A model generated the notes under the pieces. It was not told the DNA's origin. It was given only the letters and a program-made list of their open reading frames with translations, and did no database searches. A stretch of DNA of 63,856 nt, filler included, from an uncultured Myxococcia bacterium (GTDB lineage Bacteria > CAZTWC01): the NCBI GenBank assembly GCA_964617105.1. It is 3 parts of 3 records of this genome, joined end to end, with 100 filler letters (N's around TTAATTAATTAA, not from the genome) between each part and the next. Parts side by side here need not be neighbours in the genome. Positions count along the whole stretch, not along the records: positions 24,324 to 48,036 come from CAZTWC010000023.1; 2 more parts are not named here. One strand, written 5' to 3'. This document shows positions 9,121-59,055 of the stretch, one piece after another; position 1 is the first letter of the stretch; the number at the start of each line of letters is the position of its first letter. The translations under genes and the position numbers were made by a program.

Positions 9121-9166
9121 TTGCCCTCTGGGATGACAATTTACTGTAATTATCAAAGGAGATATA

Positions 9167-12142: not shown

Positions 12143-13576
12143 TTAATATAGCGTAGAACAGGAACATCCGGCCGGCCCTGCCGTCTGTTGAGGCGAATTA
12201 CCGGCTCTTCCGGTATCGGCCTTTTCTGGCAGGTAATCGACATTGGTAGAGTTATCAATAATCTCTTGTCCACCTTCAAAATTATCTTGAACTTCAGAAA
12301 GGTCTGGTTCTATAGATAACTCCCCTTGATCATCTGTGTAGGTAAGCAAAGCCAATTCCGGCTGGTAGTGGGCGATAATATCTTTATATGAATCGCCCCT
12401 CAGTCCTCTCTCCAACATTCCCCACTGGCAAAAACCCCTGACCAGACATTTTTTGGATGCCTTGCACCCAGATGGGGTGGTGGGATTTGGGACATCAGGG
12501 TTAATTTCATGGGCAGCGCAGCAATTGTGACCACACCATTTGCCAATACAATCATTTCGTCCGGTTTTATCTGGTACGGTATTAGTTCGATATTCTGGTA
12601 AGGTGCCATACCGGCCGCAACTGGAAGCGTATTCAATTTTATCCAGTATAGAGTGATCCTTTTTTTTCACCAGGACCATCCCTTTGGTTAAATCTACCGC
12701 CTCATCAATGATGCTCAACCGGGTATCTTCATAGCGCTGGTTGCATACTGTGTCGTTGATATGGTATTTGTAAACCTCACTGCGTCTCTTTATATAAAAA
12801 TAGTAGGCATAAGTTCTGGCGGCGACAGCTAAGGTTTTAAAAGTTTCCAGGGCTGCTCTTTTCCCCTGTTTATTGTGGGCAAACACCCCGATCTCGGCGT
12901 AAACCGCCCCTTTGACATAATCTTCAAAATCGATCTCATCGATACGATCTGGAGTCGATGAGCAGGGCTTGCAACTATCGCCCAGGCAATACCTGGCCAC
13001 CTTGATGGTTTTTGGCAGTTGGTCGGTTACCGTCAACTCCCGCTTTTGGTTCCCATTAGTCCAGGAAAAACCTGGTTTTGGATTAATCTGCGCGTCTGAT
13101 TCCAGTTCAAAGGCTGGCAAGTTTAAGGGATCTTGCTGCTTCCTGGGTATTGGCAAGCCAAAAGGGTATTTGGCCAGACGAATATCTTCTTCGATCTGAG
13201 CCGGTAAAACCGATAATGCCCGCATCTCAGTACCTAAGGGTGTTGGGGAAAGAATATTGACCAGTTTGATATCGCCATCAAGCCGTTTGACCAAAAAATT
13301 ATGAACTCCCCGGGGTAATAAAAAACTAACCATACCCTGCCTATCGGTTATAGCGGCCTTACCATTTAATAGGCAGACCACCTTTTCAGCGGTTAGAGGA
13401 GTTTTGTCCAGGGCGTTAATAATCCTGAATTTTACTGTGGATAAAGGTTCACTATTGGTAGCCACACCGTTTTTAATCGGCAGTAAAAAAATAAGGGTCA
13501 TAACCCAAAAAAGCACTAAAGATTTTATGGCGATAGCCTGCTTGGATGATGGGTCCAGAAAAAACAAATTTTCCAT
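12143..13576 (-). CDS. Secreted SpoIID/LytB-domain lytic transglycosylase-like protein with a C-terminal GCSCS motif
   Basis: N-terminal hydrophobic segment; FEDYVKGAVYAEI, LAVAARTYA, INDTVCNQRY, GFCQWG...YKDIIAHY; acidic linker then AGCSCSTLY*. Confidence 0.8.
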   Translation of the reverse strand: MENLFFLDPSSKQAIAIKSLVLFWVMTLIFLLPIKNGVATNSEPLSTVKFRIINALDKTPLTAEKVVCLLNGKAAITDRQGMVSFLLPRGVHNFLVKRLDGDIKLVNILSPTPLGTEMRALSVLPAQIEEDIRLAKYPFGLPIPRKQQDPLNLPAFELESDAQINPKPGFSWTNGNQKRELTVTDQLPKTIKVARYCLGDSCKPCSSTPDRIDEIDFEDYVKGAVYAEIGVFAHNKQGKRAALETFKTLAVAARTYAYYFYIKRRSEVYKYHINDTVCNQRYEDTRLSIIDEAVDLTKGMVLVKKKDHSILDKIEYASSCGRYGTLPEYRTNTVPDKTGRNDCIGKWCGHNCCAAHEINPDVPNPTTPSGCKASKKCLVRGFCQWGMLERGLRGDSYKDIIAHYQPELALLTYTDDQGELSIEPDLSEVQDNFEGGQEIIDNSTNVDYLPEKADTGRAGNSPQQTAGPAGCSCSTLY

Positions 13577-13590
13577 ATGTCAATATCCCT

Positions 13591-13630
13591 AAAAAAACCC
13601 CGCCTGATTTTAACAACCGGGCGGGGTTTT
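13591..13630 (-). terminator. Rho-independent terminator after the OM-barrel gene
   Basis: Minus strand reads AAAACCCCGCCCGG-loop-CAGGCGGGG-TTTTTTT. Confidence 0.85.
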
Positions 13631-13728
13631 GTTTGATTTCCGGTTTTCACGCCATCAGATACAGGACTCAACTCCTGTTGAGTGTTAACCAGATCTCCCG
13701 GGGTGAATACCGGTGATTACTCAGATTT

Positions 13729-14469
13729 TTACAGGCCAAATCTGCCGCTAAAGCCTATCAGGAAATAACGGTTGTCAATAGCGTCCTCTTTCAGGTTGGT
13801 AAGACCGAATTTACCAAAGATATCATAGTTTTTCTCCAGGGTGTGATACACGGCCAAAGCCAGAGGCATAGTCATGGCGTCGGTTTCGAAGTCAGGCATG
13901 TAAACACCAAAGTCCAGGGCCAGGGCCATACAATCACTGGGTTTGAAGGTAGGAGCCAGATTGAGGTAGAAATTTTTCTGCATGGGATCGGTAAGCACCA
14001 AAGAGAGGCTCAGGCCGGCATTCATGACAAACATATCATGCAACTCTTTGCTGAATACCACAGCCGGAGCGATACCCAGTTTGGCGCCATCCTCTACCGG
14101 AATATTAAAAGCCAACTCAACCGCCAACTCGGGGATAATGCCATAGCGCACATAGAGATCAGGATTCTGGAAACTATTGATTTCGTCAGGATCTTTAATG
14201 AACTGCAGATTCAACATCAAGCCTGCCTCTAAGTTCTCAATAATGCCAAAACCGGCACCAATTGCCATGGGGATATTTTTGGCTACTTGATCCTTGGATA
14301 GATTGATATTGGCGCCAAAAGAGGCTTCCAGGGTCATGGGTTCCAAAACCAAAGGCCGGGTGGGATTGTGATAGCCAGTTCTAATGCCAGCTGAGGGGCT
14401 TTGAGCGAAAGCACTGGTGGCCACTAAAAAAGATAAACAAACAATCAATACACTTAGAGTTTTTTTCAT
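13729..14469 (-). CDS. Outer-membrane beta-barrel protein, function unknown
   Basis: ATG at 14469 after AGGAGA; signal peptide ending AFA-Q; alternating amphipathic strands; C-terminus YFLIGFSGRFGL. Confidence 0.7.
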   Translation of the reverse strand: MKKTLSVLIVCLSFLVATSAFAQSPSAGIRTGYHNPTRPLVLEPMTLEASFGANINLSKDQVAKNIPMAIGAGFGIIENLEAGLMLNLQFIKDPDEINSFQNPDLYVRYGIIPELAVELAFNIPVEDGAKLGIAPAVVFSKELHDMFVMNAGLSLSLVLTDPMQKNFYLNLAPTFKPSDCMALALDFGVYMPDFETDAMTMPLALAVYHTLEKNYDIFGKFGLTNLKEDAIDNRYFLIGFSGRFGL

Positions 14470-14847
14470 TTTTTTTCTCCTGAATTTGTGAAATAAAAAA
14501 ACGCTTAATAAAAATTTTAATCTCATTAAAAACAATTTCTGGTTGTGACGAGTTCTTTCCAGGCGCCTCCTTTCTCAAGTCTGCCTTTTGGCAGCAGGTT
14601 TCATTACTTGCAAATTATTTGCCAAATTATTTTTCTAGTGGCAAATAATAGTTAAAAAGTTAATATAAGCACAAAAATAACACAACGCAAGTTTTTATCA
14701 TATTTTTTTGGCCTAAACTCGGCAGATAAATTAAAGTCCGACGCTGTGAATAACTGTGAAAATAAAATACAGTGTGAAATTTGCCTTCTGAAATTGGGGC
14801 TGGTAAAATAGGCTAAATTTTAATCTCATTTTAGAAAGGTATAATAG

Positions 14848-16370
14848 ATGAGGATTAACTCTTTTCAAATGAGCCGCACCCTCTTTAGATTGTTCTTCTT
14901 GAAACTATTTCGGCTCTTAAAACCTGGAGCCTTAACCTTTGTTTTAATTGCCGGCCTGCTTTTTGCAACTCATATCAATGCAGAGAATAAACAACCGCCA
15001 GAAAATCTGCTCAAAGAGCAAAAAACAGATGGAGAATTGTGGTCATTGGAAAAACTAATTAGCCTGGCTCAGGAAAACAACCAGGAGATAAAAGTGCAAA
15101 AGGCGGTTTTAAACACTGCCTGGCAAACCAGGCGGCGGGCTGAGTGGGCCCGGTATATTCCCCATCTGGAAATGCGTTCTATCAATGGGCTGGTGCCAGA
15201 AGCAAAAAATTGCCCCCTGGATGGTTCGGCCACAGCAAACAGCCAGTGCCGGCAGTCGCCAGCAGAACTTGGCTCCACTTTTGATAATCTGGGATTTTTT
15301 ACCCGTTGGGAGGTAGACCTGGTTCAACCCCTCTATACTTTTGGCAAACTTGAAGGGGCACTTAAAGCGGCACAAAGTAATATCAAAATCAGGCGCCAAC
15401 AGGTAAAGCAGAAAAAGCAAACTATCGCAATTAGAATATCCAAACTCTACTGGAGCATCCTTTTTGCCAGAGATTCTTTAGAAGTTATCAGCGAAGTGGA
15501 AGAGAAACTGGAGGAGGCAGAAGAGAAAGTAAAAGAGAAACTGGAGGAGGAAACCGGCGAGGTTACNNNNNNNNNNAGGCTGATCTATTTAAGGTTAAAG
15601 TATATAAAGGAGACGTGGCCGCTAAACGACTGGAGGCGGAAAAGGGAATGAAAACCGCCATCGAGGTAATTTTAAACACCGCGGGTCTGACCCAAGAGGA
15701 GCAATATAAAATATTTCTGGGTGACCTGGAGGAATTGGCCTTAGAGAGCAAACCCCTCTCTTTTTACCTGAAAAAAATGGTTACATCCCGGCCAGAATTG
15801 GAAATATTAAAACAGGGATTAAAGGCAAAACACGCCCAGGTGGCAGTGGTAAAAAGTGATTATTTTCCCCAAATCTTTATTGGCGGCATGTTACGCTTTG
15901 CTTACGCTCCTAACAGGGAGGAACCCAATAACGCCTATATTTCCGACTACTTCAACACCTTTTCTCTGGGAGCAGGGGTGGGTTTAAAACAAAAACTGGG
16001 TTTCCACACCACCTATGCAAAACTGGAAGAGAGCCGGGCTCAACTAATGGAATTACAACGACAAAACTCTCTGCTTAACCATGTTTTACCCCTGGAGGTG
16101 AAAAAAAACTACTATGCTCTACAGGAGACACAGCAACGGCTGGAAGCATCATATTCCAGTTACAAGGCGGGGAAAAGTTGGTTCAGGTCGGTGGGGATGA
16201 ATTATGGTGTGGGCATCTGCGATATCGATGAGATGCTGGAGGCCTACGGAGCATATATCAAAACCAAGACCATGTATTACAAGGCCATACTGGATTTTAA
16301 CCTGGCTGTGATTGAACTAAATGCGTCTGCCGGTATATTTGACTTTTCTCCGACTACAGTTGGGGATTGA
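14848..16370 (+). CDS. TolC-family outer-membrane channel (one gene split by a 10-N gap at 15567-15576)
   Basis: LEKLISLAQENN, QPLYTFGK, SRPEL, SDYFPQI, YYKAILDFNLAVIELNASAG. The two ORF-track pieces rejoin as EVT(Q)ADLFKVK across the gap. Confidence 0.85.
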
Positions 16371-24223: not shown

Positions 24224-24323
24224 NNNNNNNNNNNNNNNNNNNNNNNNNNNNNNNNNNNNNNNNNNNNTTAATTAATTAANNNNNNNNNNNNNNNNNNNNN
24301 NNNNNNNNNNNNNNNNNNNNNNN
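24224..24323. other. Artificial contig linker (N44-TTAATTAATTAA-N44)
   Basis: Exactly 100 bp with a six-frame stop spacer; identical copy at 48037-48136. Confidence 0.97.
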
Positions 24324-25211
24324 AAAACGGAAATGGTTCTTTTCCGCCCCTTCCAGGTTATATTGTCCCCGGTTTTTTTCCGCCCATACATATCCTCCCT
24401 CACCGTGCAGACCCACCTGCAAAATCTCTCCGCTGAAACTACCTCCAGCCAGATGCCAGCGGGTCTGTCCCAGGACATTTTCCGGCGCAATTTTATTGGC
24501 TAACACGCTCTGCAGATCTTGTCGTTGAATTGTGGCGGCCACATAGAGCAGAGAGATATCCCAAAGATCCTGGTGGGTTTTCAACCTCAACATCCAGTCT
24601 CCGTCTTCGACCCGCTGGAAATCACGGGATCGCTGATGGGAGGTGCCAAAAAAGTAGGTTATCTCCAACTCATTATCTTCCAGAAAGGTGAGGCTCCCCA
24701 TAATGGCATCAGTCCCCTCCACTTCATATCCGGGATTAAGGGGATCTTTACGGTTGATCAAATCGATAGGATTAAAGGCATACCCAGTGCCCAGGTAGAT
24801 TTTTTGGCGGCCGGCACAAAATTTTAATGGACCAGCAAAAAACATCCCAAAAGCCTCTTGCAGCCAAAGTTGGTTCTGCATGGTATGGATCAGGTATGGT
24901 TGTGCAAAGGCCGGTATAGTATTTCTTTCTCTTTGCGAAAGAAAATCGAAAAGCTCAAAGGTGGTGGCGCCGGTGTATAGATTGCCGATAATGGAAATTC
25001 CGACTTCCACCATTTCTCCCCCGCTAGCATTAAGATTCAAGCGGGTGCGAAAGTTTTGTAAAATGGGAAAAAGTTTTTTGTCTTTCCGGTAATCACCCAA
25101 GGTGGTGCTCTCAAAATAGCCGCCAGCCTGTATATTGTCCTGATCAAAGGCTAAGGCAGCACTATTAATAAGGAAATAATATAGAAACAACAGACAACTA
25201 ATCAATCGCAT
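24324..25211 (-). CDS. Outer-membrane protein of the type that accompanies LolA-like/MMPL pairs (3' end lost at the contig edge)
   Basis: Signal peptide; LQEAF..AGRQKIYLGTGYAFNPIDLIN..DP..EVEGTDA; starts 3 bp after the LolA-like gene. Confidence 0.7.
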
Positions 25212-26262: not shown

Positions 26263-27618
26263 ATGGAAAATTTATATCTAGCATTCAGCCGTGGTCTTTT
26301 TGACCAATGTATTAAATCTATTTTAGACTATCAGCGGAAAACCGGCCAGACCAATCCTGATCTGGACTATTTGCTGCTAATGAGTTATATCCGCGGCAAT
26401 TATACTGACAAAGCGGTTTACCATGCTATTGGCCTCTACCAGTTACTGTTCAGGTTTGAACCCGGCAGTGAGATTTTTCAAAGATATCTCAATTTGCTAA
26501 AAGGTACCAATATCCTGCAAACGGGTATACAGGTTATCAGGGAATTGAAAGAACTAAGCGAGATCGGTCCCGATTATTCAAGTATCTATCAAGATGTTTT
26601 ACAACAGGTAATTATTGATTTGTCCGACCAACAGCGGCAGTTAATCGTTTTCCCGATGATATGGCCAATTGCTTTTGGTGACTCTATTGTTCTGCACCAG
26701 TTTATCAAGCAGAAGAAAAAAGAGAATAGCCAGGCAGCCATTATGCTGATAATGCCGTTGAACAGGCCCGATCTTCAATACTTGGCCGAACTGAATAGTT
26801 CCATCGATTATCTTATTGATATTACCCTGCTGCCGGATCAAGAAAAGAACCGGCTTTCCACTTTGAACTTGAGCAACCAGCGATTTCTCAATGTAACTTT
26901 GCAGGAATGTATTATTCACAGTATATTGGATGAAATAAAAGCAAGTCATATTAACTTTCAGATTGAAAAAACCCGTTACCTGCCACTGCTTGACCGGTAT
27001 AAATATAACGCCGGCTGGCGGATATGGGAAAAACGGGCCGAATTATTTGTAAAATATGGTATTGAATTGCCCAAACTGTGCCTCCAGAAGGAGAAAAAGC
27101 AAAAGAAGATAACGGTTCATTTCAGGGAGGGTGATTATGGGGCTGAATCGAGAAATGTCAAGCCACAGCAGTCCCAGGAATTAATCGACTTACTAAAGAC
27201 TACTTATCCAACTCATGAAATTGTCCGCCTGGGCGATTGCTCTATGACGCCCATGAAAAATTGCCACGACCTTAGCCAGCAGAATTTATCTCTTCAAGCC
27301 CAAATTAAAGAGATCCAGGAGAGTGTTTTATATCTTGGCAGCCATTCCGGCCCTCAGCATTTAGCGATTGCCTGTAGTGATACCCCGGTGATCTGCACCC
27401 ATTATACAGTTGCTCCTGAATGTTTCAATTTTAATGACCAAATCAGCAAAATGTCTTTAGAACCGGTGGGGAAACAAGTTAAAGCGCTTTTATATAATAA
27501 AATGTATGATCAAAACAACAATTTGGTTTTGCCAAATTATGAACACAAAAATGTTCGTGTAGAGCAACCAGTCAATAGTGAAATTATCGAAAAAGTAAAA
27601 CAGGTTATCCAAGGTTAA
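26263..27618 (+). CDS. Putative GT-B glycosyltransferase (TIGR04372/GT9-like) with a helical N-terminal region
   Basis: AFGD, ITVHFREGDY..SRNV, IVRLGD, YLGSHSGPQHLA..TPVIC. Confidence 0.6.
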   Translation: MENLYLAFSRGLFDQCIKSILDYQRKTGQTNPDLDYLLLMSYIRGNYTDKAVYHAIGLYQLLFRFEPGSEIFQRYLNLLKGTNILQTGIQVIRELKELSEIGPDYSSIYQDVLQQVIIDLSDQQRQLIVFPMIWPIAFGDSIVLHQFIKQKKKENSQAAIMLIMPLNRPDLQYLAELNSSIDYLIDITLLPDQEKNRLSTLNLSNQRFLNVTLQECIIHSILDEIKASHINFQIEKTRYLPLLDRYKYNAGWRIWEKRAELFVKYGIELPKLCLQKEKKQKKITVHFREGDYGAESRNVKPQQSQELIDLLKTTYPTHEIVRLGDCSMTPMKNCHDLSQQNLSLQAQIKEIQESVLYLGSHSGPQHLAIACSDTPVICTHYTVAPECFNFNDQISKMSLEPVGKQVKALLYNKMYDQNNNLVLPNYEHKNVRVEQPVNSEIIEKVKQVIQG

Positions 27619-27636
27619 TAATTAAAGGAATGAAAT

Positions 27637-28899
27637 ATGGCTAAGTGCTACATTTTAGGCGCCGGTTTAACCGGACTCACTGCCGCCTATAAATTACAAG
27701 ATAAATTCTCTGAAGTGAAGGTCTTTGAACAAAAAAATTACCTGGGCGGAATTTGCCAGACTCATAAGATAGAGGGGATAAATTACGAATATGGTCCCCA
27801 TATCCTCTATACAACTACTGAAGAGCAAAAGAAGTTTTGGTTGTCACTGGTTGCCAACAACTTGTTTGACTATTATGTCCGCTGCAGCATCGATGGTAAA
27901 GTGGGCAAATATGAAGAACTCTATGATTTCCCCATCAGCAATAGAAATTTAACCCGTCTGGGAGTGTCATGTTCGCCCCAACCACCCGATTACAGCAATT
28001 TTGAAAACTATATGATCAGTCAAATCGGGCTGAAAGCGTACCAGACTTTTGTGAAAAACTACAACATTAAACAGTGGGGCATACCACCAAGCCAAATGTC
28101 CGCTGAATGGGCAAAAGGCAGACCGTTATCTCTTAAAGAAGATAACCCGAAGATGTTTGGCAATAAATGGGCTGGTCATCCAGGCTCATACCGACATTTT
28201 TTCGAAAAATTGAGTCATGGTTCCAGGCACTATTTAAACCTTAGGATAACTGGTGCTAAAATTGAAGATAATCTAATCAAAACCATTAATTGCCGTGAAT
28301 TGACTGAAGATAAACCAATGGTTGTTCAGGTGGCTCCTGATGATCTGGTGATCAATACTTTACCCATTGATCTCTTTTTTAAAGGAGAGTTGAGTTGGAG
28401 AGGGATCAGGAAAGTTTTTGTGGTCTTGGATAGGGAATCGTTAATGCCAACCTATAGCACAACTTTTCCCAATAATTATCCCTGGACCAGAATAATCGAA
28501 TACCCCAAACATTCTGGCCAAAAGGTAAAGGGCAAGTCGTTGATCTCTTTCGCCCTCCCCTATGGAGTGAAACAGCCGTTGAAGCCAGGATCTATGGAGG
28601 AAATTGATCAATTTATCGATAATGAAATTAAAGCGACAGAATTAAATCGCAGGATTGAACAGGAGGACAATATATATCCCATATCGAGTCATGAAAATTT
28701 GATCAATCTCGATAACATTCTGGCCGAAGCATCGAAGATCAATAATTTCATTACTATTGGACGCCTGGGTCTTTATGCCTATATTTCTATGAGTAGAGCC
28801 GTGGAGATGGTATTCCAACTCTCCCAGTCTATGGAAGATTTAAACAATTCTGCTGAACGTCTGGACTTTTATCAAAGCCTGAGGAAAGATTTGTGGTGA
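27637..28899 (+). CDS. FAD-dependent UDP-galactopyranose mutase (Glf)-like enzyme, divergent
   Basis: ILGAGLTG, EQKNYLGG, YGPHILYT, YNIKQWG, WTRIIEY, IGRLGLYAYISM. Confidence 0.75.
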   Translation: MAKCYILGAGLTGLTAAYKLQDKFSEVKVFEQKNYLGGICQTHKIEGINYEYGPHILYTTTEEQKKFWLSLVANNLFDYYVRCSIDGKVGKYEELYDFPISNRNLTRLGVSCSPQPPDYSNFENYMISQIGLKAYQTFVKNYNIKQWGIPPSQMSAEWAKGRPLSLKEDNPKMFGNKWAGHPGSYRHFFEKLSHGSRHYLNLRITGAKIEDNLIKTINCRELTEDKPMVVQVAPDDLVINTLPIDLFFKGELSWRGIRKVFVVLDRESLMPTYSTTFPNNYPWTRIIEYPKHSGQKVKGKSLISFALPYGVKQPLKPGSMEEIDQFIDNEIKATELNRRIEQEDNIYPISSHENLINLDNILAEASKINNFITIGRLGLYAYISMSRAVEMVFQLSQSMEDLNNSAERLDFYQSLRKDLW

Positions 28900-28904
28900 A
28901 AGAG

Positions 28905-29705
28905 ATGAAGTTGAGTTTTGCCGTCTCTATATCAGAAACCAGGTTTGAGGCAATTGCCAGTGGGAATTGGCAGAAAAATATCAAATTGATGGCAGACCTT
29001 AAATTTGATGGGGTGGAGTTGAGTGTTCGTTCGCCAAAAACTGTTGATCTCAAAAAATTGCTGTCTGATTTGGATAAAACCGGGCTGGAAGTTTCCGCTA
29101 TCGGCACCGGGCAGGCCCTGGTTGACGATTCCCTCTCCCTGACTGATGATGACCAGGAAATTCGTTTTCGGACGATATCAAGGATTAAGCAGCATGTAGA
29201 TTTGGCTTGCCATCTAAAGACCAGGGTAATTATAGGCCTTATTCGCGGCCGGATGGGTCTGGAGCCAAACCGGCGGGCTCAAAAGATCGCCTATTTTAAA
29301 GAGGGTCTCAAACTGTTAGCAGATTACTCTTTGCCCAAAGGGATAACCTTATTGATTGAGCCATTGAACCGGTATGAAGGTGATTATTTAAGTTCTGCCG
29401 AGGAAACTATCGATTTTATAGAGGAGATTGGTTGTTCAAACCTGGCTTTGCTTTTAGATACCTTTCATATGAATATTGAAGAGGCTGATATCCTGGAGAG
29501 TTTCCGAAGATCAAAGAACTATTTACAGCATGTTCATATTGCCGACAGCAATAGAAGATCACCGGGAGAAGGCCACCTTGATATTAGAGGTATTGTCGAG
29601 GTGCTAAAAGAGATCGACTATGACGGTTATTTATCTGGAGAAATTTTAAAGCATATTTTGATAATCTCCCAATTCTCGCGACCAGGTGAATTTCCGGACG
29701 GGTAG
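28905..29705 (+). CDS. iolO: IolO/TM0416-like 5-keto-gluconate epimerase (sugar epimerase TIM barrel); last helix replaced by repeat-derived sequence
   Basis: MKLSF, GTGQA..DSLSL, VIIGLIRG, IEPLNRYE, DTFHMNIEE, HIADSNR..PG.GH, SGE. Confidence 0.75.
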   Translation: MKLSFAVSISETRFEAIASGNWQKNIKLMADLKFDGVELSVRSPKTVDLKKLLSDLDKTGLEVSAIGTGQALVDDSLSLTDDDQEIRFRTISRIKQHVDLACHLKTRVIIGLIRGRMGLEPNRRAQKIAYFKEGLKLLADYSLPKGITLLIEPLNRYEGDYLSSAEETIDFIEEIGCSNLALLLDTFHMNIEEADILESFRRSKNYLQHVHIADSNRRSPGEGHLDIRGIVEVLKEIDYDGYLSGEILKHILIISQFSRPGEFPDG

Positions 29706-29708
29706 TAA
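29670..29708. repeat. MITE-like terminus overlapping the iolO-like 3' end
   Basis: Near-identical to 5022-5060; supplies the TAG stop of the gene. Confidence 0.6.
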
Positions 29709-29711
29709 TCT

Positions 29712-29763
29712 CGTCATTCTTGCAAAATGTGTCTACGATTCCTATTGGGGAGCGGGAATCCAG
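29712..29763. repeat. GTCATTC...GCGGGAATCCAG-type REP-like palindrome with inner hairpin
   Basis: CGTCATTCTTGC...(hairpin)...GCGGGAATCCAG, a degenerate form of the widespread GTCATTCCCGCG..GCGGGAATCCA repeat. Confidence 0.55.
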
Positions 29764-29780
29764 AAAGTTTGAGGCGATAA

Positions 29781-30566
29781 ATGGAAACAAAATTTAGTGA
29801 TAAAGCAGTAGATCAAGTTGGTAGTAATGAGGTTGAATTGTGCAGTGAATTCAACTATATCAAGGGATTTATTTTGGCCAATATTAACCGGTCAACCCCT
29901 TATGAAGATTATAGCCAAGAGAGTGAAACTGCCCTGATTATTCTCCAGGGGGTCTGCGATATAACCATCAATGAGAATCAATATAAAGATATTGGCGAGC
30001 GGAAAAATGTGTTTGACGGGCTACCTTTTGGCGCCTATATACCGGTTGATACCCATTATTCAATTCAAAGTGAACAGGCATTGGTTGCTGTTTGCAAATG
30101 CAAATGTGAAAAAAAAACCAGGGAGCAGATTATTTCTCCAAAGCAGATAAAAGTAATGGAGGTGGGAAAAGATAATTGGACCCGAGAGGTGAGGATCATT
30201 TTAGGTCCTGATTCTCCGGCAGTCAATCTGATCCTGGGAGAGACCATCAATCCGCCGGGGAATTGGTCGGGGATACCACCGGCAAAACATGAGCAGGTTA
30301 ATTTGCCCTATGAGTCGCTTCACGAGGAGTTATACTATTTTAAAACCGATAAACCTCAGGGGTGGGGGGTTGAGAGGATCTATTCCCCGGAGCGGAAGTG
30401 CAATCAATTGGTTCATTTGGAGGATGGGACGGTTACCTTTATGCCCTGGGGATACCACCAGGTGGTAGCCGCTCCAGGATATACTCTCTATTATCTGTTT
30501 TTTCTGGGTGGAGAGGGTAATAATCTGGCTCAATTTGAAGACCCTGAACACAATTGGATAAAATAG
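29781..30566 (+). CDS. IolB/KduI-family cupin isomerase (5-deoxy-glucuronate isomerase-like), divergent
   Basis: RKNVFDG.P, GETINPPGNWSGIPPAKHE, HEELYYF, GYHQVVAAPGYTLYYL, DPEHNWI. Confidence 0.85.
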   Translation: METKFSDKAVDQVGSNEVELCSEFNYIKGFILANINRSTPYEDYSQESETALIILQGVCDITINENQYKDIGERKNVFDGLPFGAYIPVDTHYSIQSEQALVAVCKCKCEKKTREQIISPKQIKVMEVGKDNWTREVRIILGPDSPAVNLILGETINPPGNWSGIPPAKHEQVNLPYESLHEELYYFKTDKPQGWGVERIYSPERKCNQLVHLEDGTVTFMPWGYHQVVAAPGYTLYYLFFLGGEGNNLAQFEDPEHNWIK

Positions 30567-30666
30567 TTCTCTGCAGGCTTTTGATGAATTGTACAAATGC
30601 CACTGATTGTAATTAAGCGGGACTTTGGTAAGGATTTGTTAACATCTTTAAAGGGGAAAAATAGTT

Positions 30667-31596
30667 ATGAAAGATATCTCGGCCGATGATATTGCTAAAA
30701 ATATACCTTTGATCACCAGGAAAGATTTTGCCAGGCAGGTTGAGGCCGGTCAGGTAAAGATTGGTGGCAAAAAACTCACCATCATGGCTGGCCCATGCAC
30801 TGTGGAGAGTAAAAGCCAAATATTTCAAATCGCCAAAGCGGTTAAAGAGTCGGGCGCCGCCATGTTAAGGGGCGGTGTTTTTAAACCGCTCACTTTTCCT
30901 TATGGGGACCCGATTGGCCAACCTGATGCAGATTCTTCTGAACCACCGGCTTTTGACCGGATGCAGGTTCTCTCCAAACCAGAGTTGTTCAAAATGGCGG
31001 AGAAAAGATTTGCCTATTTTAAAGAGGCAGGTGTCAAATATGGCTTGCCGATTATCTCGGAAGTACTCTATGCCGATTCGGTGGAGATGCTCAGCCAATA
31101 TGTCGATGTGTTCCAGATTGGGTACCGTCACATGTTCAATATGGACCTTATCGAAGCGCTGGCTCATACCGACAAGCCGGTTATGATAAAACGTCATTAC
31201 GGGGAGAGTATCCGTTCACTTCTGGGGGTGGGAGAGCATTTTGATGCCAGGGGAAAAGAGAACATTCTCTTTTGTGAGCGCGGTGTTTGCTCTCCCCACA
31301 CTCATAACGTTGAATCCCGGGCCATTATCGATATTCAGGCCATCCCGGCTCTAAAGGAATATTGCCCTTCAGTGCCGGTTATTATCGATCCCAGCCACTC
31401 CACCTTTAAAAGAGACTACGTGTCTGCCATTTCCAGGGCTGCCATAGCCGCAGGGGCGGATGGTCTTCTAATTGAGGTTCATCCAGATCCGGAGAAAGCC
31501 TGGGTCGATCCATTGCAGGCCCTGGGCTTTAAGGCTTTTGACAAATTAATGCGGGAGATAGAAGGGATCGGTAGGGTTATTGGCAGAGAATTGTAA
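30667..31596 (+). CDS. DAHP-synthase type I-beta / KDO8PS-family PEP aldolase-like synthase, atypical
   Basis: MAGPCTVES, LRGGVFKPLT, QIGYRHM, KRH, CERG, DPSHS, EVHPDPEKAWVD; no regulatory domain. Confidence 0.88.
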   Translation: MKDISADDIAKNIPLITRKDFARQVEAGQVKIGGKKLTIMAGPCTVESKSQIFQIAKAVKESGAAMLRGGVFKPLTFPYGDPIGQPDADSSEPPAFDRMQVLSKPELFKMAEKRFAYFKEAGVKYGLPIISEVLYADSVEMLSQYVDVFQIGYRHMFNMDLIEALAHTDKPVMIKRHYGESIRSLLGVGEHFDARGKENILFCERGVCSPHTHNVESRAIIDIQAIPALKEYCPSVPVIIDPSHSTFKRDYVSAISRAAIAAGADGLLIEVHPDPEKAWVDPLQALGFKAFDKLMREIEGIGRVIGREL

Positions 31597-31606
31597 AACG
31601 GTCTGC

Positions 31607-33709
31607 CTACTCGAGCCATTTATTGCCGTCAGTGCAGGCTTTGATAACCGCTTGATACAATCTATGGTTGGCGCAGAAACGTTCTTCTGGAATGGTGGTC
31701 TCGTGTGCCCATTTGATGGTATCGATAACTCGGTTTTCACTGTGCATATAGATAAAGGTGAGAGCCGGTTTTAGTGCGCGCAGCAACTTGTCCTCAAAGG
31801 ATAACAGCCGCTTTATTTTATCTGAAGGCAGGGAAGATGACTGGTTGAGCCGGGCGCATTGTCGGGCCAAATATAGGCACTTTTTAAAACTCAATTTTAA
31901 ATTACCCTTCTCTTTTTTCAGGTATTTTCTTTTCTTTTCTTTGTCGGAGACCATAAGAAGATTGGTGGAAAAGGGTTCCCAATTTTGAATGTGGTTAAAA
32001 TCGAACTGTTCCACCACGGTTTTCAAGGGGATATGCTCCATGTTGTCAATATAGGCCCCGCCCTCTGTACTATTGATTATTCGAACCTGTTCTTTAATCT
32101 CCAGGGCCGAATCTTCAAGAAATTCGCGAGTGATGCTCCAATTTTTAAAAGTCAGCACTTTTTTGTCAAAATATCCCCGGGTTTCCTCCATCTCTTCCTG
32201 GCCGGTCAGATTAATGTGGCTGTGTTGGTTATCCATTTTATTGGCTTTTTGGCTCCAGCCTTTAATCGTAAAAGTTTTATTGTCATCTGACAGGTTGACT
32301 CTGGTGTGTTTGTCGTGAACAGTATGGTCGTAAATCCGCCCATCTTGAAAAGCCAAATCATGTCCAACCAGAATTATCGGGTCACAGCCTAAAAGTTTAG
32401 CTAATGAAAAAGCAGCGGTTGCCACCGTGACACTAGAGTGTAAATAGGTTTCCTTGTCAAACAGGTAGTCGAGCCATTGAGCGATGTTGGTTTCACTGTT
32501 GTATAAAAAAACCTGTTTAAAGTTGAGTTCTAATACCTTTGGATTAACTTGACCGGATAGAATTACCGCCTTTAGTTGTTCAACTGGATAGTCGTCAAAA
32601 TGGTAGCAGATATCAGAAGGAGCCACTACCTGGACAATGTCGGGGATGATATCCTTTTTTTTGAGGGGCGCCAATGCTTTGCTATAGGCCAGTAAAAGGG
32701 CTTTGCCCTTTAGGCTTTGGATGAGATCGATGTTTTTTGCCAAAGAGGGGCCAGGGGCAATCAAGACAATTGGTTTTTTCTGCCATCTATTTTTTAGGGT
32801 CGAGACCAGGGGCCAGCGGGTAAATTGATTCAGGTTGCTAAGGGTTTGGGGAATAGATATTTTAGCAAAATGTTTTTGCCGAAAATTTAATATCATTTTA
32901 TTACGGAAAAAGTTCTCCAGGATACTGGTAAGATACTCAAGTTTTGGGCGGGAAAGAGCCATTTTTAAGAGAGATTTCCCAATGATAGTTTCCGGCAAAG
33001 GAGAGGAAAGATTGTCCATGGCATTTAGCAATTCAGGTTCGTTTCTGACCACCGTTATCAGGGACGGCAGGTTTTCAATGGTTTTTTGATCTTCAAGAAA
33101 AAGGACAATTCGAGTCTGTCCGCGCCGGGCTAACTCTCTAGCCACATCAGCCAAGTCAGAACCAAATAGGATGGAGATATTAAGGTTAAAATTCCAGGCC
33201 AGAGGCAGCATCCGGTCTACAAAACCGGAGATATTTTCGGCCAGGCCCATGTTTCGCCTGCCAACCAGGGCGCCAGTAGGAAACCAGTTGGCCAGCAATT
33301 GCTGTTGGGTAAGAGGCCCGGATTGATTCAGCCAGGCTAAGATAACTTCATTCGCCTGACGGCAGGAGGAGGTTAACTCTTTCATCTGTTCAACCAGGCC
33401 GGACCACTTTGAAAAGTCATCGATATTGATCTCTTCTAGGGCCTGGTGAACCCGGTTGAAATTGGCTCTGGCAACCCGGCTGCGGTCAATTAGTTTTCGG
33501 ATCTCTTTATTATTGCCAGCCTGGCTGGCCACGCTTTTTTTTATTTTTTTTCCCAAACTGTCCAAATCTTTTAGATTAGTCAGCATAAATTTTATCTTGT
33601 CCGAATCCGGCCACTGGGGATCCCAGAGGATCTCTTCAGCCGGCAAATTGATGGTGGTATCTGGTCTGGGGTCAATTTGAGATTGTTGTTTTTGGGGTGA
33701 CTTAGGCAT
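31607..33709 (-). CDS. Maf (motility-associated factor)/DUF115 MptE-like glycosyltransferase
   Basis: IAPGPSLAKNID, IIPDI, SVTVATAAFSLA..LGCDPIILVGHDLAF, INSTEGGAYI. ATG at 33709 after AGGAGA. Confidence 0.85.
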   Translation of the reverse strand: MPKSPQKQQSQIDPRPDTTINLPAEEILWDPQWPDSDKIKFMLTNLKDLDSLGKKIKKSVASQAGNNKEIRKLIDRSRVARANFNRVHQALEEINIDDFSKWSGLVEQMKELTSSCRQANEVILAWLNQSGPLTQQQLLANWFPTGALVGRRNMGLAENISGFVDRMLPLAWNFNLNISILFGSDLADVARELARRGQTRIVLFLEDQKTIENLPSLITVVRNEPELLNAMDNLSSPLPETIIGKSLLKMALSRPKLEYLTSILENFFRNKMILNFRQKHFAKISIPQTLSNLNQFTRWPLVSTLKNRWQKKPIVLIAPGPSLAKNIDLIQSLKGKALLLAYSKALAPLKKKDIIPDIVQVVAPSDICYHFDDYPVEQLKAVILSGQVNPKVLELNFKQVFLYNSETNIAQWLDYLFDKETYLHSSVTVATAAFSLAKLLGCDPIILVGHDLAFQDGRIYDHTVHDKHTRVNLSDDNKTFTIKGWSQKANKMDNQHSHINLTGQEEMEETRGYFDKKVLTFKNWSITREFLEDSALEIKEQVRIINSTEGGAYIDNMEHIPLKTVVEQFDFNHIQNWEPFSTNLLMVSDKEKKRKYLKKEKGNLKLSFKKCLYLARQCARLNQSSSLPSDKIKRLLSFEDKLLRALKPALTFIYMHSENRVIDTIKWAHETTIPEERFCANHRLYQAVIKACTDGNKWLE

Positions 33710-33743
33710 ATAGTTCTCCTGAACAGGCGTGGGCAATCAACTG

Positions 33744-36515
33744 TTAGCAGTGCCCAGGCCGATCCCCTTGTCTTTCGGTTAAAAACCTGCTGGCCACGTG
33801 CATTAAGGGGGGCATTACCAAAATGGTTGAGCACAGGCAGGCTCCCACCCCGATCAGTAGCACTACCCCCAGGCTGGCCATGCCGGGATGGGCGTAAAAG
33901 GCGATATTGCCAAAACCGATCATAGTGGTGAAACTGGTCATCATCACTGCCCGGCCTACGCTGGTAAATATGATTGATAAAGATTTGCTCCTGTCTTCCA
34001 AATATCGGTGCAGCACATGTACTCCATCATCCACGCCAATGCCAATCATAATCGGTACCGCTATCAGGTTGACCATGTTGTATTTGACCCCTAATGCCCA
34101 GGCAGCCAGCAGCATCCAGGTCACTCCCACTCCCAGGGGAACCACTGCCAGCAAGGCTGGTAAAATACGCCTGAAATCCAATAATAGCAGTAAAAAAATA
34201 GCCGCGGCTGTGGCCAGGATAGTCAGGTTACCATCACTGATAAGTTGAGTGTTCATCTCCAGCATCAAAGCGGGAATACCGGTAATCTGGGGCGCTATTT
34301 TAGACACCGTAGCAGTAAATCTCTCCAATGGCTCTTTGTCATAAATAAAATAGCGAGGATACAACTGAACCAGGTATCCACCTTTGCTGCTTTTATAGCG
34401 GTTTAAGATCTCCGGAGGCAGCATATCTTCAGTAACCGGACCCCGGTTGGCGCTCATCTCTTTAAGCCTGGCGGCCAGTAATTTTTGAAAGCGCTCAAAG
34501 AATTTCTGTAAATGTTCTTTATCCACTCTCTGGCCGATTTTAAACTGTTCAACCAATTTTGCCAGAGGGCCTCCTCCTTTTTCTCCACCGGTGAGGCGCT
34601 CCAATTTGGCAACCACCCTATCCTGCCCGCCGATATAGGACAACTCTTCCATCTCCAGAATATTTTGATATAGCCTTTCCAACTGAGCAGTTAAAGATTC
34701 AAGATTGATTTGAGCGGCCAGACTATTCTCTTTGGGTTTCTGGTTGCCGGTCCGAATATTTTTCGATGCTATTGATGAATGATTTTTTTCAGAATCCATT
34801 AAGAACTGGTGTAATTTTTCCACCAACCGGTCATTTTTCTCTTGCCATTTTGGGTCGGGGATCAAAAATGAGATACTGTCGATATCGCCTACCAGCCGTT
34901 TCTTTTTAAACGCCCTGGTCAGTTTACGGGCCTGGCCGATGTTATCTGCCACTACACTGCTCATCTCCGGGCTCATTTTATAGCGGTCAATAATCTCTTT
35001 TTGCAAAAAAACCGAGTCCACTTGCGGCTCCATTTCCAGAAAATTGTATTCATAGGGAATTTGGTCTTTTATCCAAAAGCCCAGAGCCAGGGAGATAATA
35101 GTGAAAGATAAAATCAGCCAGCGCCATTTTACAAAACTCTGGGTAAAGCGTCCCAGGGGAGCGAAATTCGGACTTTTTATCTTTTTGTGCCGGGATATGT
35201 TTCGTTGTTCATGCCATACCAACAAAGAGGGGAGAATTAGCAGGATGGCTCCCAGGGTAAAGAGGATGCCGAAACCAGCGCAGAAACCGAATTCATAGGT
35301 GCCTTTGGATTCAGAAATCATGGTGGCGAAAAAAGCAGCAGCCGTGGTAATCGCCCCCATCATCACTCCCCGGCCGGTTCCCACTACAGCCAAGGTAAGA
35401 GCTTGCTCAAGGGTGCCGCCTTTGAGCCTTTCTTCCCGGAACCGATTTAAGATATGGATGGAAAAATCGATGCCAATACCTATTAAAACCAGCATAATCA
35501 TGGCGGTAATCAGGTTCAGGGTCTTGATAGTTACAGCGTAAAAACCCATGGACCAACTTATGCCTATCAGGAGTGGTAGAATTCCCCATAGAGGTGTCAG
35601 CCAGTCTCCAAAGTTCCAGCGTAGCATAATCAGCACCAACAACAAGGCCAAAATAGTCAGTATCATGGTTTGAGGACCAAGAGTCCTCATCTCGTCAGCA
35701 CCAATGGGGACCATGCCGGTGCGCCTGATTTTTATACCGGGATATTTCTTTTCTATGTTTTTGAGTAAGACCTGAAGATCTTCATCCATTGGTAAATACT
35801 GGTCAAAATCATCAATACTAAAAGTGGAGGCTAAAAGCACCATGGTCATTTGGCGATCTGGAGAGAAATAATAGGGATTGCCAGTGGTTAAATCTCTGAT
35901 TACCCGTTTTACATCAGTCTTGGAATTGCTGTCGGCGGCACTGGAGATGGCCAGCACCAGTTTTTCTATGGAATCCATCCGGTTAACCACGTCTCGTTGG
36001 TTATTGCGGATATTTTCTTCATCACCAACGTATTCTTTTTCTAAATCATTATTGAGATGAGTAAGAAAAGGGAGTAGCCGGGGATCGGAAAAAAGATTAA
36101 CCGTTCGCTTCAGATCCTTAATTTCCATAGTTCGCAAGCCGTGTTTCAGGACAAATTGTTCAGGCATTTTGCCAACTACCAATTTAACCCATTTAGTCTC
36201 CTTCTTAAGGCTTTCGATAACCTCTTCAGTGACCTGTTCCAGTAATATTTCGTTGTCTTCCTCATTGTTTCCTTCAATGTCTCTTTCAATAACCACCAGA
36301 TAGTTGCCGGGATTGGAAAAATCTTTATCAATCCGTTTATACTCCTGCACTACCGGCATGGTTTCCGGCAAAAGGTGAGTCCATTGGTAACTCATTTTAA
36401 TTTGGCTGGCCAATACCAGAGAGATTAAGGTGCTGACCAGAGAAAAGATAAGAACAGTCCGCCGTTTTTCCAGAGCCAGGTAAACCAGCAGTTTAAGGAA
36501 TTTTTTTTTATACAT
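33744..36515 (-). CDS. MMPL/RND-family lipid exporter
   Basis: Two repeats with IGIGIDFSIH and IGIGVDDGVHVLHRY; TTAAAF / TTMIGFG; large periplasmic loops. Confidence 0.92.
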   Translation of the reverse strand: MYKKKFLKLLVYLALEKRRTVLIFSLVSTLISLVLASQIKMSYQWTHLLPETMPVVQEYKRIDKDFSNPGNYLVVIERDIEGNNEEDNEILLEQVTEEVIESLKKETKWVKLVVGKMPEQFVLKHGLRTMEIKDLKRTVNLFSDPRLLPFLTHLNNDLEKEYVGDEENIRNNQRDVVNRMDSIEKLVLAISSAADSNSKTDVKRVIRDLTTGNPYYFSPDRQMTMVLLASTFSIDDFDQYLPMDEDLQVLLKNIEKKYPGIKIRRTGMVPIGADEMRTLGPQTMILTILALLLVLIMLRWNFGDWLTPLWGILPLLIGISWSMGFYAVTIKTLNLITAMIMLVLIGIGIDFSIHILNRFREERLKGGTLEQALTLAVVGTGRGVMMGAITTAAAFFATMISESKGTYEFGFCAGFGILFTLGAILLILPSLLVWHEQRNISRHKKIKSPNFAPLGRFTQSFVKWRWLILSFTIISLALGFWIKDQIPYEYNFLEMEPQVDSVFLQKEIIDRYKMSPEMSSVVADNIGQARKLTRAFKKKRLVGDIDSISFLIPDPKWQEKNDRLVEKLHQFLMDSEKNHSSIASKNIRTGNQKPKENSLAAQINLESLTAQLERLYQNILEMEELSYIGGQDRVVAKLERLTGGEKGGGPLAKLVEQFKIGQRVDKEHLQKFFERFQKLLAARLKEMSANRGPVTEDMLPPEILNRYKSSKGGYLVQLYPRYFIYDKEPLERFTATVSKIAPQITGIPALMLEMNTQLISDGNLTILATAAAIFLLLLLDFRRILPALLAVVPLGVGVTWMLLAAWALGVKYNMVNLIAVPIMIGIGVDDGVHVLHRYLEDRSKSLSIIFTSVGRAVMMTSFTTMIGFGNIAFYAHPGMASLGVVLLIGVGACLCSTILVMPPLMHVASRFLTERQGDRPGHC

Positions 36516-45278: not shown

Positions 45279-46945
45279 ATGAAAAAAATAATTTTATTAT
45301 TGGGAGCAGTAGTTTTAATGCTCCTCTATCTATATTGGCCCGAAAGTAGCCACCTTGAGTTTCAATCCTGGGATATAGATGTTCAACCTGAATCAGAGGG
45401 CAATGTACAATTTACTGCCTGGCAAGTTCCTGAAAATTTGATAAAGGTGAGTTTGTGGAAAGATGGCGAGAATTTTGCTGAAAATAGCCAGAACCAGGGG
45501 GAACAAGATACTAAAGTCGGCCAGAATGAAAGCGGGACAATTTCTCCGCCAAAGACTCAGGGAAAAAAGAAACGCCAAAGAGGCAAAGGTAAATTGCCTA
45601 AGGTCGCTCCCTCTTTAAGCAAGGGAATTCACCTGTTGGTCAAATTACTCAATCAGAGATTGGAACATATTAGCAAAATGGCGCCCGTGTTGCTAACTCA
45701 GGGAAAAATGAACAAAGAGGTGTTGAAATTATTTCAAAATGGAAATTATCTGAAGGCCATGGAAAAAATGGATTTGCTGGCCTCCAAATATGCTAATGAT
45801 CAGGAGGTGGTTTTTGCTTTTCAAACAGCCTGCTACTTGACCGTATTGAAATCTATAGAGAAGGGACATGATTTGCAGGGTTTGAAATGGCTGGAAAAGA
45901 GCATTACTTATCGATACCGGGATTATAATTTTTGGCTGTTTGAGGCAATTATATTTTATCGAATGAGGCTTTACCAGGGAGCGGCTCTATCGTTTTCTAA
46001 TATGATAAATCTAACTCTGCCTATGGATGTCCTCAATGTTGCCGAATTTTACCTGGCCAGGATCAATCACGGATTAGGCAGATCTGAGCGTGGGTTGGAA
46101 TATATCGAGAAATTTCTGCAGAGAAATCGAAATGACCGCCAGGCGGAAAAATTGAAAGAAGAGATCATTAAGGAGATAAAAAGAGATCAAAACCTGATTC
46201 TTCAACAAAACTCGGTGGTTTCAATTAAATACCCGGCTGATTTGGCCAAAAAAGATTGGACAATAGCCTGTATCCAGGAAGGATTAACCAAAGGAAGCAG
46301 TTATCTATTCAGCACTTTTGGACTACAGGTTGAACAATCTCCCCTGGTGGTGATTTACCAGAATAAAAAATATTTTCATAGCGCCACCGGAGCGCCCACC
46401 TGGAGTTCAGCCTTTTTTGACCGCAAGATAAGATTGCCGGTGGACAGCAAACATTTGGGCAAAAATTCCTATTGCCGTTATTTGCAAAAAATGGTGAGCC
46501 ATGAATATGTGCATTACCTGTTATTTATGGTGGCAGGTGGTAATTTGCCTATCTGGTTTCACGAGGGTTTGGCTCAACTAGTGAGTGGCGAATCGGATCA
46601 GTCCCGGTTGAAAACCTATAAAATGTTTGCCAAATCGGGCTCGTTTATCCCTTTTACATCCCTGGAAGGNNNNNNNNNNCTTCCTCAATAGAAACTGTTG
46701 GATGCCAACCAAGTTCATTTTTGATTTTTGAAAAGGAAGATGCCAAAATAGCCTATCACCAAAGCCTCTCTATATTGGAGTATATCAGGGACAGGTACGG
46801 AGCGGCTTATATCAAAGAGATTATCCAGGCCTATATTCAAAAGAGAACGTTGGAAAAAGTGGTTCAAAAGGTTTTTAATATCGATTTAACTACCTGGCAG
46901 AAAGAATGGCTGTTTTATCTACAGAAAACTTATGGCGGTAAATAA
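45279..46945 (+). CDS. TPR + peptidase MA-family zinc metalloprotease (split by a 10-N gap at 46670-46679)
   Basis: N-terminal anchor, TPR helices, HEYVH...WFHEGLAQ; the downstream piece AKIAYHQSLSILEYIRDRYG..W..YL is the expected C-terminus. Confidence 0.8.
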
Positions 46946-48036: not shown

Positions 48037-48136
48037 NNNNNNNNNNNNNNNNNNNNNNNNNNNNNNNNNNNNNNNNNNNNTTAATTAATTAANNNNNNNN
48101 NNNNNNNNNNNNNNNNNNNNNNNNNNNNNNNNNNNN
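48037..48136. other. Artificial contig linker (N44-TTAATTAATTAA-N44)
   Basis: Same 100-bp structure as 24224-24323. Confidence 0.97.
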
Positions 48137-59004: not shown

Positions 59005-59055
59005 AGGCTGTCAAGTAACCATTGACGTAAAATATAGTGTTCTAATGGCTGGTAA

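Follow-up and report, generated by a model that had tools for sequence, protein, structure and literature searches.

Background

Ulosonic acids such as Kdo and sialic, pseudaminic and legionaminic acid are of key importance as sugars of the cell surface, and we know of only two types of synthase that produce them for glycans. In the nonulosonic acid pathways (NeuB, PseI or LegI; NeuA or PseF; Maf) a special aldose is condensed with phosphoenolpyruvate (PEP), activated with cytidine triphosphate (CTP) and transferred. In the Kdo pathway (KdsD, KdsA, KdsC, KdsB) an isomerase supplies the aldose, a synthase of the 3-deoxy-7-phosphoheptulonate (DAHP) synthase family condenses it, and a cytidine monophosphate (CMP) transferase activates the product. 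Here a stretch of 63,856 nucleotides from an uncultured Myxococcia bacterium (GenBank assembly GCA_964617105.1; the whole stretch is called the window below) was analyzed, and a six-gene sugar cluster at 26263-33736 was compared with these systems. The cluster is built around a DAHP synthase paralogue whose KPRT motif reads KPLT, and the cassette to which this KPLT-type synthase belongs is real and recurrent and probably represents a new variant of ulosonic acid biosynthesis.

The cassette follows the logic of both pathways, and a PseF-like neighbor, Maf and NeuB-type islands also occur near KPLT synthases. It differs from the nonulosonic acid pathways in that the condensing enzyme belongs to the DAHP synthase family and not to NeuB, and in that the precursors would come from epimerase/isomerase or dehydrogenase pairs and not from UDP-GlcNAc-modifying enzymes. 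Unlike the Kdo pathway, it lacks the KPRT arginine and a conserved phosphatase neighbor. The KPLT synthase shares the PF00793 domain and the Cys, His, Glu and Asp positions with KdsA and with the type I-beta DAHP synthases (1zco; Thermotoga maritima 1rzm), and presumably also their PEP-dependent, aldol-type condensation, but it has altered motifs and two insertions and stands among glycan synthesis genes rather than aro or lipid A genes. Two further enzymes of the cluster are of the same sequence families as IolO (TM0416) of T. maritima and IolB of inositol catabolism; here, however, the pair has a constant place immediately upstream of the synthase gene in 24 loci and can be exchanged for an IolG-like and AroE-like pair. 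The first enzyme of the cluster, designated u451, resembles GT9 enzymes (WaaC, TibC) and the TPR plus GT-B proteins of the FlmG and OGT type (for FlmG, the accessible part of PMC7591256) in having a helical N-terminal domain followed by a GT-B fold, but unlike them it has no sequence-family match. No publication on the KPLT-type synthase or the cassette was found in the literature searched, the coverage of which excluded most subscription journals and supplements.

Organization of the sugar gene cluster

The window consists of three contigs artificially joined by N44-TTAATTAATTAA-N44 linkers at 24224-24323 and 48037-48136. The sugar cluster has its own contig, 24324-48036 (23,713 bp), of which just 1.9 kb lies upstream of u451. 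The original prediction, made from the sequence alone, described five co-oriented genes converging on a Maf/DUF115 gene. This layout was borne out: six open reading frames (ORFs), five on the plus strand and one on the minus strand, were found with the predicted families, as follows.

26263-27618, plus strand: u451, TPR-like plus GT-B glycosyltransferase (AlphaFold2 model, Foldseek)
27637-28899, plus strand: Glf-like FAD enzyme, divergent relative of UDP-galactopyranose mutase (PF03275, 76 bits)
28893-29705, plus strand: IolO-like TIM-barrel ketose/keto-acid 3-epimerase (NF041099, 293.9 bits)
29781-30566, plus strand: IolB/KduI-family cupin aldose-ketose isomerase (PF04962, 214.6 bits; TIGR04378, 214.6 bits)
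30667-31596, plus strand: KPLT-type synthase, type I-beta DAHP synthase paralogue (PF00793, 158.6 bits)
31607-33736, minus strand: Maf-like protein, 709 amino acids (aa), whose residues 297-465 form an MptE-like/DUF115 domain (PF01973, 111.8 bits)

The stop codon of the Maf-like gene is 10 bp from that of the synthase gene.

The KPLT-type synthase

The DAHP_synth_1 domain (PF00793) was present in the synthase, which scored below every NCBIfam cut-off for DAHP and KDO8P synthases. Scores were 238.6 for TIGR01361 (cut-off 267.75) and 269.2 for PRK08673 (cut-off 335), both type I-beta DAHP synthase models, and 99 for the KDO8P synthase model TIGR01362 (cut-off 314). The NeuB domain PF03102 gave 21.2 bits, just under its gathering cut-off of 22.1, and NCBIfam held no dedicated model for the KPLT subfamily. 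In the PDB comparison the synthase matched DAH7PS with 198 bits and KDO8PS with about 64 bits.

When the synthase was aligned to Pyrococcus furiosus DAH7PS (1zco), C44, H244, E270 and D281 were opposite Cys31, His201, Glu227 and Asp238, which we take to be the metal ligands of that enzyme. The KPRT motif of 1zco and 4grs was changed to KPLT, with L75 at the position of R62 of 1zco; the arginine of KPR(T/S) presumably binds the phosphate of the aldose phosphate, which is erythrose 4-phosphate in DAHP synthase. Further, CERGIR---TFE of 1zco was CERGVCSPHTHNVE in the synthase, QIGARN was QIGYRH and KRG was KRHYGES, and there were two insertions, one of about 26 aa after PYG and a helix-turn-helix insertion after CERG. 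Arginines and histidines that are invariant in the synthase (R98, R114, H155, H177, R183, H211, H213, R218 and R249) are candidates for lining a pocket that binds a carboxylate.

The window protein was then compared with 18 relatives, hand-picked among the 120 matches listed. Identity was 67-78%, and FKPLTFPYG, including the leucine of KPLT, was invariant throughout the 19-sequence alignment. Where the sources named these relatives, they were called DAHP synthase (3-deoxy-7-phosphoheptulonate synthase), NeuB-family or hypothetical protein, and the taxa given were Deltaproteobacteria, Chloroflexota, Parcubacteria, Margulisiibacteriota or simply "bacterium". Judged from these alignments and profile scores, the synthase is a member of a conserved, unnamed subfamily of the DAHPS/KDO8PS superfamily.

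That the enzyme is a paralogue, as had been predicted, was supported by a proxy set of five genomes carrying an IolO/IolB-type cassette (G001-G005). Two further, higher-scoring DAHP_synth_1 genes (242-281 bits) were present in G001, G003, G004 and G005, so at least these four possess the KPLT enzyme in addition to other paralogues; in G002 the only extra match was incomplete and lay at the end of a contig.

Gene neighborhoods of the synthase in other genomes

A scan of one genome per species gave 137 synthase relatives, spread over many phyla, from which 80 loci were kept, and a metagenome scan gave 30 loci. Neighboring ORFs were clustered and the cluster representatives named; 107 full-length synthases were counted and four partial ones dropped. 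An AroE-like (shikimate dehydrogenase homologue) and/or an IolG-like (Gfo/Idh/MocA) dehydrogenase gene was found within 3.5 kb of the synthase gene in 70 of the 107 loci (type A), and an IolB-like gene, with or without an IolO-like gene, within the same distance in 24 including the window (type B). Neither pair was found in 13 loci (an Azospirillum clade and short contigs), and no locus carried both. The cassette of the original prediction therefore recurs, since IolO-like and IolB-like genes flanked the synthase in 23 loci besides the window, and all six window genes were found together, in a changed order, in one metagenome locus (L091). These two observations indicate co-occurrence beyond chance, and the refuting outcome named with the original prediction, a lack of co-occurrence in other genomes, did not come about.

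In L091 the genes lay inside a NeuB/Maf island. The order was GT2-cytidylyltransferase fusion, IolO-like (43% identical to its counterpart in the window, and likewise for the percentages below), IolB-like (53%), synthase (70%), PseF-like cytidylyltransferase, GalE-like epimerase, u451 homologue (50%; 12687-14039), Glf-like (55%; 14099-15352) and a convergent Maf-like gene. Upstream were a second Maf gene, NeuB, a CMP-synthetase-HAD fusion, a glycosyltransferase and a PseB-like gene. Because the gene order was different and the identities were modest, L091 is regarded as an independent instance of the set.

Among the 68 loci that had 3 kb or more of flank on either side, 60 carried a PseF/KdsB-like cytidylyltransferase gene no further than 6 kb from the synthase gene (type A 44/49, type B 15/16, neither 1/3), a count that is a lower bound obtained with one query at E 1e-8. 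Such a gene beside the synthase is a signature of CMP-ulosonic acid synthesis. Other neighbors were NeuB, PseB-like proteins, UDP-sugar dehydrogenase, glycosyltransferases of families GT1, GT2 and GT4, Wzx-like flippase, DegT aminotransferase, radical-SAM enzymes, and methyl-, acetyl- and carbamoyl-transferases, which place the synthase in a glycan-locus context. The replacement of the KPRT arginine by leucine, together with the lack of a conserved phosphatase neighbor, points to a non-phosphorylated acceptor. The predicted formation of an ulosonic or ulosaric acid from a non-phosphorylated aldehyde fits this change and the PseF/KdsB-like neighbors in glycan loci.

In a maximum-likelihood tree, the window protein fell in a clade of 56 rows that were 60-78% identical to it and carried the insertion. 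A second clade of 50 rows had 39-49% identity and included Pelagibacteraceae, Acidobacteriota, Chloroflexota and Azospirillum. Type A (27) and type B (24) loci interleaved within the 56-row clade, where well-supported branches forced at least four switches. As the two pairs are mutually exclusive and interleaved on the tree, they may be interchangeable modules, which suggests non-orthologous displacement. Direct observations here are what the genes are, how their motifs have changed, that they occur together, and that the two pairs exclude each other.

Several other features of these loci were recorded. One KPLT-type synthase gene (L050, 6452-7315) was on a contig labelled Nanoarchaeota and had a long branch in the tree (0.76). 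Fusions of GT2 with a CTP_transf_3 cytidylyltransferase (about 450-470 aa) lay directly beside the synthase gene in many loci (L006 10940-12295, L071 7493-8878 and L091 6980-8365, also L007, L012, L019, L022 and L024-L028). L006 and L091 were verified to have the two domains, L022 had GT2 and a weak NTP_transf_3 match, and the others were assigned by clustering alone. Five Azospirillum loci (L049, L059, L060, L062, L063) and one from Alphaproteobacteria (L052), with neither pair within 3.5 kb, form a third context; 10 kb of flank was available in four loci of this clade, and one carrier is cultured (A. halopraeferens DSM 3675).

An alternative is that the synthase is simply the DAHP synthase of the cell, with IolB and IolO as inositol genes that are neighbors by chance. 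The label 3-deoxy-7-phosphoheptulonate synthase given to relatives by the sources would agree with this, as would an IolB-like score above the IolB equivalog cut-off. Speaking against it are the failure of the synthase to reach any DAHP synthase cut-off, the KPLT substitution, the cytidylyltransferase near most synthases and the additional DAHP_synth_1 paralogues in four of the five proxy genomes. Also, no aro, iolC, iolD, iolE or iolG family was found among 49 ORFs scanned in the window. The original prediction of no aro or other iol genes on this contig holds for these ORFs; as the window is three joined contigs, such absences tell little about the whole genome. The ordinary-metabolism explanation is largely refuted, and we give it hardly any credence.

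The IolO-like and IolB-like enzymes

The IolO-like protein narrowly missed the cut-off of NF041099 (IolO 5-keto-L-gluconate epimerase; cut-off 300). Its closest solved relative was T. maritima TM0416 (2zvr, E 4.6e-51). The part of the report of Shin et al. available to us describes TM0416 as a promiscuous epimerase/isomerase of non-phosphorylated C4-C6 sugars that is best on D-erythrose (PMC8167858).

The IolB-like protein passed the 5-deoxy-glucuronate isomerase equivalog TIGR04378 (cut-off 205) and matched 2qjv in the PDB with E 9.6e-23. Enzymes of the IolB and KduI families act on sugar acids, converting a terminal hydroxy-ketone to an aldehyde and back. Homologues with 49-61% identity were encoded directly upstream of the synthase gene in other loci. 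The enzymes had been thought to be recruited from inositol catabolism. This was not upheld: the IolO-like protein is closest to TM0416, an enzyme described as promiscuous, and in the type A majority the pair is replaced by IolG-like and AroE-like enzymes.

u451, the Glf-like enzyme and the Maf-like protein

For u451 no Pfam or NCBIfam family, including PF01075 (GT9), was matched at E 0.001 or better. An AlphaFold2 model was built from 20 sequences, namely the query and 19 of its 21 non-self matches (P0140 and P0141 were left out). The model (predicted local distance difference test score 93, predicted template-modeling (TM) score 0.91) began with a helical domain, about 125 residues long, to which a GT-B fold was joined. 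In Foldseek it was closest to the GT9 heptosyltransferases 3tov, WaaC (2h1h and 2gt1), WaaF (1psw) and TibC (4rap), with E values of 4e-8 to 4e-5. A GT-B fold similar to WaaC and WaaF was supported by E values of 4e-8 to 5e-6 and a target-normalized TM score of up to 0.59; homologues of the TPR-containing O-GlcNAc transferase were lower in the list. The u451 family is rare: just 22 clusters of it were found when 5.8 billion proteins were searched.

The Glf-like protein scored 92 against the UDP-galactopyranose mutase model TIGR00031, below its cut-off of 303.75, and its best PDB match was UDP-galactopyranose mutase 3hdq (E 4.9e-21). Compared with 3hdq, the GPHI, KQWG and YR/WR motifs were kept, while the loop arginine was changed to serine and YRYYNMD to YAYISMS. 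The mobile-loop arginine and the YRYxN region are, we assume, substrate-binding residues of UDP-galactopyranose mutase. The earlier claim of altered substrate-site motifs stands for the synthase and may hold in part for the mutase. Most simply, the Glf-like enzyme is a mutase for a nucleotide sugar that feeds the adjacent GT-B enzyme. The grouping of its L091 homologue with a GalE-like epimerase and a GT-B gene would suit a module of its own for a furanose sugar. The suggestion that the Glf-like enzyme contracts the ring of the acid found no support.

The Maf-like protein was well above the cut-off of PF01973 (34.6) and far below that of the PseD model NF050051 (83.7 against 670). It had no match to the Maf N-terminal domain PF20157 and no sequence match in the PDB. 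According to the available parts of the sources, nonulosonic acids are transferred to flagellin by Maf proteins, and Kdo as well as Neu5Ac can be transferred by a Maf enzyme (10.1101/2020.06.03.131540, PMC11339370).

Proposed pathway

Our preferred reading, to which we assign a probability of roughly 0.6, is that the cluster is a version of a widespread cassette making a CMP-activatable 3-deoxy-2-ulosonic (or ulosaric) acid. From comparative sequence data we infer each chemical step, the chain length of the acceptor (C4 to C6), the product and the target. In the first step, the IolO-like and IolB-like enzymes would start from a common keto-sugar or keto-acid that carries no phosphate and produce a less common aldehyde, which would in effect be the C3-type epimer of an ordinary aldose or uronate. 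The KPLT synthase would then condense PEP with this aldehyde. The acid would be activated by a PseF/KdsB-like cytidylyltransferase, whose gene is adjacent in almost all other loci and is not on the 23.7-kb contig of the window. Finally, transferases would attach the acid, the candidates in the window and L091 being the Maf-type transferase and the TPR plus GT9-like GT-B enzyme, and the simplest role of the Glf-like flavoenzyme would be to provide a nucleotide sugar in furanose form for a second residue. In the majority of the other genomes the first step may be carried out by the non-homologous IolG-like and AroE-like pair, by oxidation and then reduction with the same stereochemistry; judging from their families, a ketose 3-epimerase with an isomerase and a ring-hydroxyl dehydrogenase with a reductase could converge on one C3-type epimer of a common sugar. 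The product is most likely an unusual sialic-acid-like sugar decorating proteins or surface glycans.

A different outcome of the same chemistry would be a known product, the cassette being a phosphate-free route to Kdo, Kdn, DAH or 3-deoxy-heptulosaric acid. A PseF/KdsB-like neighbor and a glycan context suit any ulosonic acid, and the greater similarity of the synthase to DAH7PS than to KDO8PS hints at a short acceptor. The activity of TM0416 is reported to be highest on D-erythrose in the part of PMC8167858 available. Several loci with acid-sugar dehydratase and KdgD/NAL-family genes are also compatible with it. Yet dedicated epimerizing pairs at 94 of the 107 loci argue for an acceptor other than a common metabolite, and a second, KdsA-sized DAHP_synth_1 gene is already present in four of the five proxy genomes. 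We consider a known product unlikely, although it is the most serious competitor of the undescribed acid.

The dehydratase genes just mentioned encode an enolase-superfamily enzyme (gluconate/galactonate-dehydratase-like) and occur with a gene for a DHDPS/KdgD/NAL-family protein downstream of the synthase gene in several type A loci (for example L011 12938-13900 and L014 14841-16004, with further cases in clusters c16 and c22). They hint at further 2-keto-3-deoxy acid chemistry in those glycan loci.

A bolder and more tentative proposal, which we hold to be less likely than not, is that KPLT synthases are a third widespread route to CMP-ulosonic acids beside KdsA and NeuB, present in SAR11, Patescibacteria, Omnitrophota, Desulfobacterota and others. 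The acceptor would be a non-phosphorylated, specially epimerized aldose or uronate from either of the two mutually exclusive pairs, and the 3-deoxy-ulosonic or -ulosaric product would be one undescribed in any glycan, here attached to protein by Maf and extended with a furanose.

Evidence against the proposed pathway and the state of the window copy

Several observations weigh against the proposed pathway or its extension to the whole cluster. The loci were retrieved by the patterns FKPLTFPY or FQ[IV]GYRHM, which makes family membership and motif constancy across the loci partly circular, and the synthase tree came from a quick maximum-likelihood search only. As the IolB-like score is above the equivalog cut-off, the substrate may be of the 5-deoxyglucuronate type. 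Among the other loci, u451 and close Glf-like homologues were found in L091 only. With an iterated Maf-domain profile, Maf-like ORFs were detected in only two of 111 sources, the window and L091, and none of the five genomes carrying the IolO/IolB-type cassette had an MptE-like gene. The neighborhood search suggested with the original prediction therefore confirmed IolB/IolO and the cytidylyltransferase as recurrent partners of the synthase but not Maf or the Glf-like enzyme. With Maf so seldom near the synthase, flagellin is probably not the target in general.

The remaining two points concern the window copy itself. The window was the sole locus among the 16 well-flanked type B loci without a cytidylyltransferase gene, and a six-frame search of the window with a profile of 47 PseF-like cytidylyltransferases found none (best E 0.67), as had been noted in the original prediction. 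In addition, beyond YLSGEIL the IolO-like protein no longer follows its homologues and stops early; the end of its gene (29650-29705) reads KHILIISQFSRPGEFPDG followed by two stops. Of 23 aligned homologues, the 12 displayed continue with a conserved C-terminal helix of about 20 aa (PDLxTAxxxYI...), which the window protein lacks or has replaced and which no other frame encodes. With such an aberrant C-terminus, the window copy may be impaired.

The cluster is flanked by a LolA_like gene (PF17131; 25215-26108, minus strand) and by a gene for an HpnN-like HAE3 RND transporter (33744-36515, minus strand). RND, LolA-like and outer-membrane genes usually travel together, and it looks as if the sugar genes had been inserted into a lipid-export gene group. 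The missing cytidylyltransferase, the altered IolO-like C-terminus and this insertion-like position would all suit an island in decay, or an incomplete one, from which this organism obtains no activated sugar. We regard this as improbable, since all six ORFs are full-length and their lengths match those of the L091 counterparts (window/L091, in aa: u451 451/450, Glf-like 420/417, IolO-like 270/268, IolB-like 261/263, synthase 309/308). Moreover, with so little contig upstream of u451, the missing gene may sit past the contig end or in another part of the genome.

The same flanking genes raise the idea that the product is a small molecule or lipid head group, and not a glycan unit, exported by the HpnN-like RND and LolA_like proteins. 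The Maf-like gene follows the RND gene on the same strand after a gap of 7 bp, and the LolA_like gene is divergent from u451. When the RND and LolA_like proteins were used in tblastn, however, none of the 110 other loci was matched, whereas glycosyltransferases, flippases and cytidylyltransferases do recur there. Export of such a product is thus very improbable, and synthesis of an ulosonic acid for a glycan remains our preferred reading.

Other features of the window

No Rfam match was found in the part of the window between 20 and 40 kb, and promoter and terminator scans gave consensus matches only, which are of no weight. Two scaffold gaps of 10 N are at 15567-15576, where a pair of OEP genes (14848-16370) is split, and at 46670-46679, touching the end of ORF 45279-46691. 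The ORF at 24276-25211 (minus strand) is cut by the contig end.

A phenylalanyl-tRNA synthetase (PheRS) of archaeal/eukaryal type is encoded at 48356-51750, on a different contig from the cluster. The alpha subunit has 517 aa with N-terminal helix-turn-helix-like domains, and the beta subunit has B1, B5 and B3_4 domains. The best non-self match of the alpha subunit had 54% identity, and the source names were mixed (Myxococcales, Eremiobacterota, Eisenbacteria and Nitrospinae); judged from these relatives, the organism appears to belong to a poorly sampled lineage. Together with Lcl_C and SpoIIE-7TMR genes, this PheRS had suggested that the DNA came from a spirochaete, an idea given up in view of the low identity of the alpha subunit and the mixed names of its relatives. 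Three big co-oriented ORFs (452, 696 and 803 aa; 57646-63550) matched no Pfam family at E 0.001. An aldehyde:ferredoxin oxidoreductase gene beside that for an iron-containing alcohol dehydrogenase (7270-10318) and ferredoxin/CCG (heterodisulfide-reductase-like) genes (418-2595) suggest an anaerobic lifestyle of the owner of that contig.

Conclusions

In outline the original prediction is upheld; its details on recruitment from inositol catabolism, on flagellin and on ring contraction are not. A highly conserved KPLT paralogue stands next to CMP-transferases in no fewer than 137 species-level genomes, among them the abundant marine SAR11 and candidate phyla, and points to an unrecognized acidic sugar on environmental cell surfaces. 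The present annotation of these proteins as aromatic-amino-acid enzymes misleads metabolic reconstructions. If the two precursor modules are interchangeable, they would illustrate non-orthologous displacement particularly clearly. Since cultured carriers exist, such as Roseibium sp. MMSF_3544 and Azospirillum halopraeferens DSM 3675, the question is directly testable.

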